Source: Eledone cirrhosa (taxonomy: Eukaryota). Taken from it: a stretch of 64,000 bases of DNA. The stretch lies in NCBI GenBank assembly GCA_964016885.1, contig OZ024742.1, positions 309,380,001-309,444,000 of the forward strand, given 5' to 3'. The position numbers were made by a program, and so were the translations under genes. Positions 1-46,550 of the stretch are shown piece by piece. The notes under the pieces are model-generated. The model did not search any database and was not told where the DNA came from. It was given only the letters and a program-made list of their open reading frames with translations. How positions within the stretch are numbered: the first letter of the stretch is position 1; every line of letters begins with the position of its first letter.

Positions 1-3000
1 ATATATATACATATACATATATATATACATATACATATATATATACATATACATATATACATATACATATATATATATACATATACATATATATATACAT
101 ATACATACATATATATATACATATACATACATATATATATACATATACATATATATACATATATATACATATATATACATATATATATATACATATACAT
201 ATATATATATACATACATATATATATACATATATATATATACATATATATATATATATACATATATATATATACATATATATATATACATATATATATAT
301 ACATATATATATATATACATATATATATATATACATATGTATATACATATATATATACATATACATATATATATACATATATACATATACATATATATAT
401 ATACATATATATATACATATATATATACATATATATATACATATATATATACATATATATATACATATATATATACATATATATACATATATATATATAC
501 ATATATATATACATATATATACATATATATATACATATATATATACATATATATACATATATATATATACATATATATATACATATATATATATACATAT
601 ATATATACATATATATATATATACATATATATATACATATATATATACATATATATATACATATATATATACATATATATATATACATATATATATACAT
701 ATATATATACATATATATATACATAATATAAGATCAAAAGATGGTTAAAGGAGTTCCATGTATTTTATTATGCGCATTTCAAAAACAAACATCATCATGC
801 AATAATATTTGTGTTTTCATCAGATAAAACAGGAGAACATGATATGAAGGCTAAAAAACACTTGTGGATAGTGCAGTTTTAAATCAACATATATATATAT
901 ATATATACATATATATATACATATATATATATATATACATATATATATATATATATACATATATATATATATACATATATATATATATATATACATATAT
1001 ATATATATATATACATATATATACATATATATATATATATATACATATATATATATACATATATATATATATATATACATATATATATATATATATACAT
1101 ATATATATATATACATATATATATATACATATATATATATATACATATATATATATATATACATATATATATATATATACATATATATATATACATACAT
1201 ATATATATATACATATATATATATATACATATATATATATATATATACATATATATATATATACATATATATATACACATATATATATACATATATATAT
1301 ACATACATATATATATACATATATATATACATATATATATACATATATATATACATATATATATATATACATATATATATATATACATACATATATATAT
1401 ACATATATATATACATATATATATACATATATATATACATATATATATATATACATATATATATATATACATATATATATATATACATATATATATATAT
1501 ACATATATATATATATACATATATATATATATACATATATATATATATACATATATATATATATACATATATATACATATATATATATACATATATATAT
1601 ATATACATATATATATATATATACATATATATATATACATACATATATATACATACATATATATATATACATACATATATATATACATACATATATATAT
1701 ACATATATATATATATACATATATATATATATACATATATATATATATACATATATATATATATACATATATATATACACATATATATATACATATATAT
1801 ATACATATATATATACATATATATATATATACATATATATATACATATATATATACATATATATATACATATATATATATATACATATATATATATATAT
1901 ATATACATATATATATATACATATATATATATATATATATATACATATATATATACATATATATATATATACATATATATATATATATATATACATATAT
2001 ATATATACACATATATATATATACACATATATATATATACACACATATATATATATATATATATATACATATATATGTATACACATATATATATATATAT
2101 ATATACATATATATATATATATATATACATATATATATATACACATATATATATACACATATATATACACATATATATATATACACATATATATATATAC
2201 ACATATATATATATACACATATATATATACACACATATATATATATACACATATATATATATACACATATATACATATACATATATATATATATACATAC
2301 ATATATATATACATATATATATATACATATATATATACATATATATATATACATATATATATATACATACATATATATATACATATATATATATACATAT
2401 ATATATATACATACATATATATATACATATATATATATACATATATATATATACATATATATATACATATATATATACATATATATATATACATATATAT
2501 ATATACATATATATATATGCATATATATATATACATATATATACATATATACATATACATATATACATATATATATATACATACATATATATATATACAT
2601 ATATATACATATATATATACATATATATATATACATATACATATATATATATACATATATATATATACATATATATATATACATATATATATATACATAT
2701 ATATATATACATATATATATATATACATATATATATATATACATATATATATATATACATATATATATATACATATATATATATACATATATATATATAC
2801 ATATATATATATACATATATATATATATACACATATATATATATACATATATATATATACATATATATATATACATATATATATATACACATATATATAT
2901 ACACATATATATATACACATATATATATATACATATATATATATACATATATATATATACATATATATATACATATATATATACATATATATATACATAT

Positions 3001-6000
3001 ATATATATACATATATATATACATATATATATATACATATATATATACATATATATATATATACATATATATATACATATATATATATACATATATATAT
3101 ACATATATATATACATATATATATATACATATATATATATATACATATATATATATATATACATATATATACATATATATATATATATACATATATATAT
3201 ACATATATATATATACATATATATATATACATATATATATATATACATATATATATATATACATATATATATATATATATATATATACATATATATATAT
3301 ATACATATATATATATATATATATATATACATATATATATATATACATATATATATATATATATATATACATATATATATATATACATATATATATATAT
3401 ATATATACATATATATATATATACATATATATATATATATACATATATATATATATACATATATATATATACATATATATATATATACATATATATATAT
3501 ATACATATATATATATATATATATATATATACATATATATACATATACATATATATATATATATATATATACATATATATATATATATATATGTATATAT
3601 ATATATATATATATATACATATATATATATATATACATATATATATATACATATATACATATATATATACATATATACATATATATATACATATATACAT
3701 ATATATATACATATATATATATATATATATATATACACATATATATATACATATATATATATATATATATGTATATATATATATATATATATATATACAT
3801 ATATATATATATACATATATACATATATATATACATATATACATATATACATATATACATATATATATACATATATACATATATATATACATATATATAT
3901 ATATATATATATACATATATATATATATACATATATACATATATATATATATACATATATACATACATATATATATATACATATATATATATATACATAT
4001 ATACATATATATATACATATATACATACATATATATATACATATATACATACATATATATATATACATATATACATATATATATATATACATATATACAT
4101 ATATACATATATACATATATACATATATACATATATATATATATACATATATATATATACATATATATATATATATACATATATATATATACATATATAT
4201 ATATACATATATATATATATACATATACATATATATATACATATATATATACATATACATATACATACATATATATATACATATATATATACATACATAT
4301 ATATATACATATATATATACATACATATATATATATACATATATATATACATACATATATATATACATATATATATACATACATATATATATACATATAT
4401 ATACATACATATATATATACATATATATACATACATATATATATACATATATATATACATACATATATATATACATACATATATATATACATATATATAT
4501 ACATATATATATACATATATATATACATATATATATACATATATATATACATACATATATATATACATACATATATATATATACATACATATATATATAT
4601 ACATACATATATATATACATATATATACATACATATATATACATACATATATATACATACATATATATACATACATATATATATATACATATATATATAC
4701 ATATATATACATACATATATATATATACATATATATATACATATATATACATATATATATACATATATATATATACATATATATATACATATATATATAT
4801 ACATATATATATATATACATATATATATATACATATATATATATATACATATATATATATACATATATATATATATACATATATATATACATATATATAT
4901 ATACATATATATATATACATATATACATATATACATATACATATATACATATATACATATATATATATACATATATACATATATATATATACATATATAT
5001 ATATACATATATACATATATACATATATATATATACATATATACCTATATATATATACATATATACATATATATATATACATATATACATATATATATAT
5101 ACATATATATATATACATATATACATATATATATATACATATATACATATATATATATACATATATACATATATATATATACATATATATATATACATAT
5201 ATACATATATATATATATATACATATATATATATATATACATATATATATATATATACATATATATATATATACATATATATATATATATACATATATAT
5301 ATATATACATATATATATATATATACATATATATATATATATACATATATATATATATATACATATATATATATATATATATATATATATACACACACAC
5401 ATATATATATATATATATACACACACACATATATATATATATACATATATATATATATATACATATATATATATATATACATATATATATATATATACAT
5501 ATACATATATATATATACATATACATATATATATATATACATATATATATATACATATACATATACATATATATATACATATATATATACATATATGTAT
5601 ACATATATATATATATATATATATGTATATATACATATATATATATATATACATATATATATACATATACATACATATATATATACATATACATACATAT
5701 ATATATATATATATACATATACATACATATATATATATATACATATACATACATATATATATACATATACATACATATATATATATATACATATACATAC
5801 ATATATATATATACATATACATACATATATATATATACATATACATACATATATATATATACATATACATACATATATATATACATATACACACACACAT
5901 ATATATATATATATATATATATATATATATATATATATATATATATATATATATATATATATATATATATACATACACATATACATGTATATAGACATAT

Positions 6001-6030
6001 GCATATATATAAACATATACATACATATAT
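1..6030. repeat. Giant imperfect (TA)n microsatellite with TACA interruptions, broken by one ~160-bp unique island at 724-886
   Basis: Visible directly; alternating purine-pyrimidine sequence has no stop codons, which explains the >1000-aa YI/YT/HI ORFs. Confidence 0.99.
763..829 (-). ncRNA. Minimal type I hammerhead ribozyme motif
   Basis: Minus strand reads UUUUAU-CUGAUGA-[36-nt stem II hairpin]-GAAA-U(GCGC)A-UA^AUAAAA. Core complete, 6-bp stem I, palindromic loop 3, predicted cleavage between 769 and 768. Confidence 0.85.
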
Positions 6031-6140
6031 AAATAACAGGTAGATTCCCAAAGAAGGTGACCACAGTTAAAAAGGCACTCTAGGTTAGTAGAGTATAAGC
6101 ATCTTTATTTTATATAGAAATGTATTCTACAGGACTAGAA

Positions 6141-6189
6141 CTGTTTCATTTGTATGAAATCATCAGATGATTTCATACGAATGAAACAG
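6141..6189. repeat. 49-bp palindrome centred on a decayed hammerhead core
   Basis: ctgtttcatttgtatgaaatcatc-a-gatgatttcatacgaatgaaacag; minus strand has CTGATGA...GAAA.cagttc.TA but no 5' strand for stem I. Confidence 0.6.
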
Positions 6190-44797: not shown

Positions 44798-45274
44798 GGT
44801 GCTAATTAAGCTAATATATTTTACTGTTTTACATGAATTTATTATTTTTCTATATATTCATAAGCTATGGAAATAAATCATGCGAAACCATTTTGCTGGT
44901 TTGAGAACTGATGAGGGTGAAGATGTGTGTGTGTAAACTTGTCTTTTATATCACCTTTCTTTATTTCCTTCTTCCAGTCACTCCTATGCGCCAACTCACT
45001 TCTCCTTGTCCACCTCCTCTTTCAATCTTGTCTATATTTCATCTGCTTGTCACCCATCTTGTGGATTGTCTCTCTGTTGACCACTGACCTCTGGTCTCTG
45101 TCCTCTGAGGCATTTTTGTCCATCACTGTCTTTGACAGCATTTAGCTGTTTTAACAGCTGTTCTAGCAATGAGTTTTCTTATTTTTATATGTGATATATT
45201 TGTTTCAACAGTACTGTCTTTTGTAATAAAAAAAATCCCAAAGTTCAATTATACTGATTCTCAACTAACAAATA

Positions 45275-46185
45275 TTACCAATATATCAAATAACTGTTTC
45301 TACTATTGGCACAAGGCCAGCAATTACCCAATGCATTACTGGTACTTTATTTTATCGACCCCGTAAGGATGAAAGGCAAAGTTAACCTCGGCAGGATTTG
45401 AACTCAGAATGGCAAGGGCCGTAACTCTTTGCGTCAAAGCATGGCGTCCAACCCTCTACTGTTACTGCCAATCTACCGCCTTTTACCAATATATCAAATA
45501 ACATTAGTAAACAATTGTTATCAACACGTATTTGCAATCTTGAATTTATTCTACTCAAAAGACATCAAACTTCTATTTTTATGTTTACTGTATTCTATGC
45601 ATAAGCCCTTGTGGTTAATAAATAAACCATTCTTATCATTGATGCCATTGTTGTTTGGCAGAATTGGTAGAGTGTCGGACCAAATACTTCAAGGCATAGA
45701 ATTACGGCCCTTTACATTCTGATTTCAATTCCTGTCAAGGTTAGCTTTGCCTTTCATCCTTACATGGTCGATAAAATAAAGTACCAGTAAGCACTGGGGT
45801 CAATTTAATCTACTTTCCCCTCCCCTTCAAATTGCTGGCCTTGTGCCTAAAGTAGAAACAATTATTATTATCTACTTTAGATTGGCAGAATCGGTAGAGT
45901 GTCAGACAACATGCTTTGTGGCATATAGTTACACCCCTTTACCTAAAGTAGAAACAACACTATTATCATCATTATTGTTGTTGTTTGACAGAATTATTAG
46001 AGTATCAGACAAAGTGGTTAAAGGTATTTCTACTGGCTCGTTACATTCTGTGTTCACATCCCACCAAGGTCAACTTTGTCTTTCAAAATAAAGTGCCAGT
46101 CCAGTACTGAGAATAATTTAACCGACATTCCTCTCCCACAATATTGCTGGCTTTATGCCTATGTTAGAAACCTTTATTATTATTA
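45275..46185. mobile_element. Cluster of SINE family A copies in opposite orientations
   Basis: Minus copy ~45292-45482 with 20-bp TSD ttaccaatatatcaaataac; plus copies at ~45655-45870, 45880-45960 and 45985-46185. Confidence 0.85.
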
Positions 46186-46399
46186 TTAACAGTGTTATTG
46201 TTCTAGCTTGTTTATTTTCATCTTTACTCTTTACTGTAATTACTGTGTTTCTATTTCAATTATCGTTGTATTGGTCACATGCCTTTTAGTATATGTGTGT
46301 GGAGGGGGATATATATATATATATATATATATATATATATATATATGTATATATATATATATATATTGGAAAATGTGTGAAATCTTTGGTACAGCTAGG

Positions 46400-46550
46400 T
46401 ATATTTGAAAAAAGGAAAAGAATGACTTCAATTGTAGTTCTAAACAATTTAATTATATAATATTATACTTTTGCTTTGTGCAAAATGTAATATTATAAAA
46501 TTAAATTTAGAACTACAAGTGAAGTCATTCTTTTCCTTTTGTCAAATATA
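46400..46550. repeat. 151-bp fold-back palindrome between (TA)n tracts
   Basis: tatatttgaaaaaaggaaaagaatgacttcaattgtagttctaaa pairs with tttagaactacaagtgaagtcattcttttccttttgtcaaatata; pairing continues to a small central loop. Confidence 0.9.

Follow-up and report, generated by a model that had tools for sequence, protein, structure and literature searches.

What are the short islands of foreign-looking sequence, many of them hairpins, that interrupt the TA microsatellites of Eledone cirrhosa, and by what route did they arrive there? The question is raised by a 64,000-nucleotide stretch of this genome (assembly GCA_964016885.1, contig OZ024742.1, positions 309,380,001 to 309,444,000 of the forward strand; hereafter the window), which is AT-rich animal DNA with an overall GC content of 33%. 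A first-pass annotation had named six such islands (724-886, 6030-6190, 14536-14754, 16313-16552, 20185-20695 and 46366-46550), which are referred to here by their first positions. With a probability of about 0.8, five of these six, together with three islands that had not been named, are short 5ˊ-truncated insertions of several families of Penelope-like elements (PLEs) that bear an endonuclease, are closest to the Hydra clade and would target (TA)n. The evidence consists of the geometry of the islands, the type I hammerhead cores and bulged tail stems that they carry, and sequencing reads that reveal where other copies of one island end. These are likely new families with a known architecture, and the Octopus vulgaris repeat library of PMC13282606 may already hold them.

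Islands and their contact with TA tracts

The islands and the arrays that surround the first of them are as follows.

1-725 and 887-6031, no strand: compound (TA)n/(CA) arrays, likely target DNA
726-886, minus strand: tailless 5ˊ-truncated PLE-like 3ˊ end whose minimal type I hammerhead is intact by motif search
6032-6189, minus strand: PLE-like 3ˊ end with a Hydra-like hammerhead core at 6166
6190-6517, plus strand: a further PLE-like 3ˊ end, in head-to-head orientation to 6032-6189 (not in the first-pass annotation)
6629-6779, plus strand: 5ˊ-truncated copy cut within the hammerhead core, with a tail stem at 6697 and TA on both flanks (not in the first-pass annotation)
13117-13212, no strand: inverted tail piece and forward internal piece of the 6629-6779 family, both ends running into TA
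14439-14535, minus strand: tail of the 14536 insertion, on its left side, with a tail stem from 14533, 2 nucleotides past the arm end
14536-14754, no strand: inverted arms 14536-14620 and 14666-14754 (77/84 identical, loop of 45 nucleotides) with at most a decayed 3ˊ hammerhead half
14887-15206, plus strand: perhaps an older relative of the 14536 family, enclosed by TA tracts and bearing, near 14916, a 5ˊ hammerhead core word (weak; score 53, next best 47)
16313-16468, no strand: perfect inverted arms 16313-16377 and 16404-16468 (65/65, loop of 26 nucleotides), hammerhead core absent
16469-16552, plus strand: 84-nucleotide tail with a bulged stem at 16477, 8 nucleotides past the arm end, then TA
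20186-20588, no strand: inverted arms (174/193) with opposite-strand hammerheads at 20290(-) and 20484(+); 20588/9 is the 3ˊ end of other copies too
20589-20690, plus strand: 102-nucleotide high-copy tail with a bulged stem at 20597-20638, 8 nucleotides past the arm end, then TA
46367-46550, no strand: near-perfect palindrome 46400-46550 (arms 72/80, loop of 5 nucleotides) with 33 unique nucleotides at left

All six named islands lie where they had been placed and touch TA tracts as described, with the hairpin at 14536 about 100 nucleotides inside its own island. TA-type tracts flank islands 724, 16313, 20185 and 46366 on both sides and island 6030 on the left only, and the reported succession of TA, hairpin, tail and TA is present in 16313, 20185 and 46366. 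The inverted arms of island 6030 are short (23/24), and island 724 has no long hairpin, its only helix of this kind being stem II of the hammerhead. Eight or nine PLE-end-like islands fall within the first 21 kb of the window.

Contact between hairpins and TA is far above chance. Five of the eight local hairpins end no more than 12 nucleotides from a TA-containing tract, compared with a mean of 0.10 under random placement, and none of 20,000 placements gave five. These five include two hairpins not named before, at 35698 and 19023, neither of which carries a PLE mark, and so TA-adjacent hairpins are not uniformly of PLE type. The first of them (35698-36057) is an old inverted repeat (135/182) flanked left and right by TA/TG tracts, and its arms match a dispersed family in the window that resembles short interspersed nuclear elements (SINEs); neither a hammerhead nor a tail stem was found in it. 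More diverged inverted repeats lacking PLE marks are present at 25606-25797, 19023-19145 and 60501-60695. At 6829-7067 a minisatellite has formed on a microsatellite, with a 22-26-nucleotide unit repeated five times and TA tracts between the copies.

The islands had been called unrelated in sequence. This description is apt for primary sequence, where the best likeness between named islands in 226 pairs reaches a z of 3.5 (20185 and 46366), but it fails for structure, since five tails share a stem. Both this likeness and that of 12994 to 46366 (z 4.1), from the same 226 pairs, were taken as probable chance.

Hammerheads, tail stems and reads

A strict descriptor of the type I hammerhead matches twice in the 55,139 non-microsatellite bases of the window, at 823(-) and 20484(+), and both matches lie in named islands; the mean in 200 local dinucleotide shuffles is 0.015. 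Allowing one core mismatch adds a single match, at 34730 and outside all islands, and a relaxed descriptor with a U3-A8 core recovers no further hammerhead in the window. The hammerhead of island 724 has its core from 823 on the minus strand, a predicted cut at 769 and a palindromic stem III, and the island ends at its TA tract 43 nucleotides past the cut. In island 20185 the motif at 20290(-) is an inverted, slightly damaged twin of 20484(+), 194 nucleotides away. Stem II is long in both islands, with 29-36 nucleotides between the core words.

Less complete motifs occur nearby. At 6166(-) the core is present and the 5ˊ half of stem I is absent, its place being taken by a 24-nucleotide fold-back (6141-6164/6166-6189), and a shortened remnant of the tail stem lies near 6094-6075. 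The adjoining island at 6190 carries a decayed hammerhead at 6279, which is the best match in the window to the ribozyme of island 724, and a tail stem at 6403. In total, a core is found in three of the six named islands (724, 6030 and 20185), and none was found in 16313 or 46366, so that the statement that several islands carry cores applies to half of them. Rfam returned no hammerhead among 150 listed of 181 window matches, which were microRNA and snoRNA matches driven by microsatellites, nor in two islands scanned singly. The full three-way junction is not seen in the predicted lowest-energy folds of six hammerhead candidates, and this absence is usual for dimer-type minimal hammerheads (PMC4209133). 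The hammerheads would be passengers of the pseudo-long terminal repeat (pLTR) of a PLE, with self-cleavage a prediction from sequence. The proposal that the elements use their ribozymes is unproven, as most islands have a broken core or none and hammerhead cleavage was dispensable for insertion in the one in vitro PLE system (PMC11167929).

Five tails (6190, 6629, 14536 on the minus strand, 16313 and 20185) share a predicted bulged stem. Its model consists of R-CTC, an inner stem-loop of free sequence, a 2-nucleotide bulge and GAG-Y, which would form an outer helix of four pairs. The outermost pair is G-C in two tails and A-T in three, and the inner stems are all different. Pairs were counted by hand; MAFFT left the stems unaligned because their loop lengths differ. 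Each stem lies 36-61 nucleotides before a TA-type tract (8.9% of background positions are within 70 nucleotides of one), begins 2-8 nucleotides past the arm end wherever that end is known, and is on the strand of the hammerhead wherever both occur. An 85-nucleotide island amid TA tracts at 12994-13078, whose best match in the window is at 18901 (score 64), has the 3ˊ half of the tail-stem word and is possibly a decayed tail.

As an independent check, inspection by eye of the Hydra-clade consensus sequences of PMC8557442 reveals the stem clearly in three of six: at the 3ˊ ends of Hydra-2_Amil and Hydra-2_Ajap, and twice at the 5ˊ start of Hydra-1_Ajap. Among the matches listed for eight 8-mer stem words in the PLE consensus sequences of that study, those at termini are in Hydra entries only. 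The occurrence of the stem both at a 5ˊ start and in 3ˊ tails fits the view that the tail is the start of the next tandem unit. No description of the stem was found in the accessible text of PMC8557442 or elsewhere in our literature search, though the supplementary data of related papers might show it. We tentatively suggest, at somewhat less than even odds, that Hydra-type PLEs of molluscs, corals and sea cucumbers share this undescribed stem at the start of the tail, where it would bind the reverse transcriptase-endonuclease and set initiation 2-8 nucleotides upstream, and that many families here share only the hammerhead-plus-stem module as a minimal signal for insertion into TA.

Evidence from other copies comes from reads of four of eight sequencing runs (X1, X4, X6 and X7), which align to 20363-20800, a region that covers the right arm, tail and flank of island 20185. 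X1 is possibly the source of the assembly and thus not independent, X4 bears another organism label, and X6 and X7 are restriction-site-associated DNA (RAD) libraries from a third study. The matching sequences number 2903 contigs in X1, 1070 contigs in X4 and about 2100 reads in each of X6 and X7. Summed X1 depth, which is not a copy number, is 20,000-116,000 over 20468-20647 and 5.29 beyond 20693, with the drop at the TA tract, and thus this family has a high copy number.

Loose ends behind 20589 consist of (AT)n in all four runs (42 and 30 contigs; 92 and 114 reads), and so other copies end exactly where the inverted arm of 20185 ends, opening there into TA. Other, diverged contigs (22-36 differences) span arm and tail unbroken, for example over 20459-20676. 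The arm-end junction is expected of a miniature inverted-repeat transposable element (MITE) but the continuity of arm and tail is not, and a fold-back artefact predicts neither. Opposite-strand joints were seen four times in X4, in one contig apiece. Taken over all reads, both partners of the first stem I pair commonly vary (20483, T>C; 20533, A>G), the 40 read differences shown of 280 include no core position, and two common changes at 20511-20512 would extend stem II. Read ends of X6 and X7 at 20558/20561 were taken as the RAD restriction cut and not as biology.

Proposed origin and competing explanations

As a group, the islands behave like PLE ends in every non-coding feature examined here. 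A 5ˊ-truncated copy with an adjacent inverted 5ˊ-truncated copy is found in 20185, 16313, 14536 and 13117. The two 3ˊ ends of an insertion both open into TA and the tail is at one of them only, as is evident from the 20589 reads and from a comparison of 6629 with 13117. A type I hammerhead in the putative pLTR, in sense towards the 3ˊ end, is present at 823(-) and 20484(+) and in part in 6030, 6190 and 6629. Insertion into (TA)n is itself a trait of the Hydra clade, to which we assign the elements provisionally from the hammerhead form and the tail stem. The first-pass reading of TA-targeting, PLE-derived elements can accordingly be kept for five of the six named islands, with 46366 undecided.

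Both ends of one family are visible in the window, at 6629-6779 and 13117-13212. In the latter, the last 43 nucleotides of the 6629-family tail are inverted and joined, through an imperfect 8-nucleotide match, to a forward internal piece that stops just before the tail stem. No hairpin results because the inverted and forward pieces do not overlap. This two-ended layout indicates that a hairpin is a by-product of the overlap between two short copies.

We infer a mechanism by analogy with a PLE of Anolis, in which both strands are cut and extended, two internal starts are used and downstream RNA is needed. The GIY-YIG nuclease of the PLE would nick a TA tract on both strands, and each of the two 3ˊ ends thereby released would serve as primer for reverse transcription at its own site on the element RNA. 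The first priming might occur at the far end of the tail of about 85-105 nucleotides, and the second 2-8 nucleotides upstream of the bulged stem at the tail start. Both cDNAs would terminate early and then be joined head to head. Overlapping cDNAs would yield a hairpin plus tail (16313, 20185 and 14536), non-overlapping cDNAs an inversion with no hairpin (13117-13212), and a single priming a plain stub with a tail (6629 and 6190) or without one (724).

Several observations weigh against this interpretation. Island 16313 lacks a hammerhead core where one is expected, and 46366 fits neither motif, as neither hammerhead nor tail stem was found in it; it could represent a MITE, the end of a Naiad element or a pair of PLE ends without tails. 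The reads cover one named island out of six, and the tails measure 84-102 nucleotides compared with the published 30-40. The stem descriptor gives 6 matches against a null mean of 0.67 and a maximum of 4 (200 shuffles), a count that is circular because the descriptor was drawn from these islands, and it also matches 32207(-), which has no tract nearby. In Hydra-1_Crog the stem, judged by eye, takes a variant form, in Hydra-1_Obim it is partial, and the tailless Hydra-1_Amil lacks it. Pattern scans of metagenome and viral contigs gave no match, and neither did six island 12-13-mers in the published Naiad, Chlamys and Hydra consensus sequences, where line wraps and divergence can hide matches. 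Among 360 open reading frames (ORFs) of at least 50 amino acids in the window there is no GIY-YIG match at the Pfam level, and no ORF for a PLE reverse transcriptase or GIY-YIG domain is linked to any island. This agrees with the earlier remark that the window contains no autonomous partner. Truncated stubs are not expected to carry a PLE ORF.

A further difficulty is that loose ends on the 5ˊ side concentrate at 20459-20460 with diverse T-rich sequence in all four runs, which is not expected from random truncation of one family. Either several families share a 3ˊ module, or the islands are dedicated mini-elements. The latter would be non-autonomous PLE derivatives of hammerhead plus tail, similar to SINEs or retrozymes, that are copied in trans. 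This explanation is unlikely, although it is the one that fares best among the alternatives. It draws on the same loose ends and on the X1 depth, which is about 1,100-2,700 upstream and rises to 20,000-38,000 across the hammerhead module and to 116,000 in the tail. Non-autonomous PLEs are also known in Chlamydomonas (PMC8557442), and animal retrozymes have been argued in the literature to derive from pLTRs. However, copies in the window have no fixed 5ˊ end: the cut lies in the core in 6629 and 6030, elsewhere in the loop, and still further up in 20185. The tandem units of retrozymes are absent as well. The homology step at 20459 is equally expected if autonomous families share only the 3ˊ module. 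The non-autonomous status assigned at first is likewise not shown, because autonomous PLEs truncated at the 5ˊ end would look no different and are the default in published work (PMC8557442, PMC4209133).

Certain hairpins, in particular 46400-46550 and perhaps 16313-16468, might instead be palindromic Tc1/mariner-type MITEs with a TA duplication, in which case the tail would be host DNA. Such families are active in O. vulgaris (PMC13282606), and in island 46366 a TATA word is present at each arm end, the loop has 5 nucleotides and neither PLE motif was found. This origin is improbable. The tail of 20185 occurs in high copy number and is continuous with the arm in many copies that have diverged, and the tails of 16313 and 14536 carry the shared stem 8 and 2 nucleotides past the arm end. 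Because a tail extends beyond one arm, 20185, 16313 and 14536 do not have terminal inverted repeats flush with a TA duplication, whereas 46400-46550 is compatible with them. Even in 46366, the arm ends resemble by eye the pyrimidine-run ends of other arms.

There is very little to recommend the view that the hairpins are fold-back inverted duplications of arbitrary neighbouring DNA that arose when the polymerase switched templates at (TA)n cruciforms, or that they are artefacts of assembly. The identical arms of 16313 and the TA-adjacent hairpins at 35698-36057 and 19023-19145 would suit it. Against it, arms differ in four of the five named hairpins, break points lie at a fixed distance from the tail stem, the break point of 20185 recurs at the same base among independent copies from four runs and two organism labels, and 13117-13212 is inverted with no duplication at all. 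For 20185, the reads on its arm end refute such an origin. Finally, the suggested link to the extreme TA expansion is unsupported, and it is most improbable that PLE insertion itself builds long arrays through a telomerase-like reverse transcriptase that slips or re-primes to add TA units: the 725- and 5145-nucleotide arrays (the two longest but one) adjoin islands 724 and 6030, but island-touching tracts are not longer than others (14 versus 33 tracts, p = 0.14), a 748-nucleotide array adjoins no island, the arrays are TA/CA mosaics of the kind long known to arise from slippage and unequal exchange, and our literature search found no paper tying PLE insertion to TA expansion.

The remainder of the window contains other repeats and a gene. 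Two copies of an RTE-type long interspersed nuclear element (LINE) ORF lie at 28281-29513 and 39181-41046 on the plus strand, are 94% identical over 1.5 kb and have RVT_1 and PHD matches in Pfam, with a PHD-finger-like insert after the reverse transcriptase domain. Exons at 23370-23630, 25215-25466, 30277-30573 and 34807-35550, all on the minus strand, include three matches to Senescence (PF06911) and belong to a gene that we take to be spartin-like. An atlas search with the 34807-35547 frame gave MIT-domain leads only, all under 0.9. Next to the spartin-like exon is a low-complexity tandem stretch (34406-34788) in which both strands have long open frames, and a tandem array of a 64-nucleotide unit, about 94% identical, occupies 46786-47192. 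The 252-amino-acid frame at 55084-55842 on the minus strand has no Pfam match and presumably represents the C-terminal part of ORF2 of a CR1/L2-type LINE.

Comparison with known systems

How PLEs make their tails, their inverted copies and their microsatellite bias is an open question (PMC8557442). The architecture described here is known, and the tail stem is the one new, testable lead. If it proves to be a clade-wide signal, it would provide a concrete, mutable RNA element with which to address that question. In such genomes, numerous short hairpins next to TA tracts probably represent PLE ends, which repeat pipelines would label as MITEs or unknowns.

The closest counterpart is the Hydra clade of Craig et al. 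2021 (PMC8557442), which, like the Naiad PLEs, exhibits 5ˊ-truncation, an adjacent inverted copy, a tail and a (TA)n preference; three Octopus families are listed there with (TA)n targets. Members of the Hydra clade, one of which comes from Octopus bimaculoides, have a canonical type I hammerhead near the 3ˊ end, in which one more base follows the 5ˊ core and stem III is only 3-4 bp long, as in 6030 and 6629. At the protein level the clade is defined by a C-terminal endonuclease (EN) without CCHH, RWK and DKT motifs and a CxCX5C linker. Their consensus sequences end 40-50 nucleotides past the ribozyme, like island 724, or have a longer tail, and an inverted 5ˊ-truncated copy is noted for Penelope-13_HM. 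The islands differ from these consensus sequences in their longer tails, the absence of an ORF and the lack of any sequence identity found.

The hammerheads resemble those of PMC4209133, most of which are in truncated PLEs, in their type I cores, small palindromic helix III and high diversity within one genome. Those hammerheads also occur in pairs on opposite strands 100-700 bp apart, a range that includes the 194-nucleotide spacing in 20185. They differ in that stem II is longer in 724 and 20185, and the motifs here are known from sequence alone.

PAc, the Poseidon PLE of Anolis carolinensis (Frangieh et al. 2024, PMC11167929), is the model for the proposed mechanism. It cuts and extends both strands of an AT-rich target, its two internal start sites of reverse transcription define the tail, and RNA downstream of the start is required. 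Its sites are 30-40 nucleotides apart and located in the start of the ORF, whereas those proposed for the islands would be 84-102 nucleotides apart and the target a TA microsatellite.

Naiad PLEs, which are present in Octopus species, have an N-terminal endonuclease, a (TA)n target, inverted copies, a tail of 30-40 bp and no canonical hammerhead (PMC8557442). They are a candidate for 46366 with its 33-nucleotide tail, although no motif match was found and cephalopod Naiads are described as old remnants; the canonical cores of 724 and 20185 set those islands apart from them. Non-LTR retrozymes (bioRxiv 10.64898/2026.07.22.740005) are likewise non-coding, PLE-related and equipped with a type I hammerhead, but they are defined by tandem hammerhead units, and no head-to-tail repeat of the unit was found among the islands. 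In O. vulgaris, 31 Penelope-like families are recently active, and hammerheads are not mentioned in the accessible text of that report (PMC13282606).

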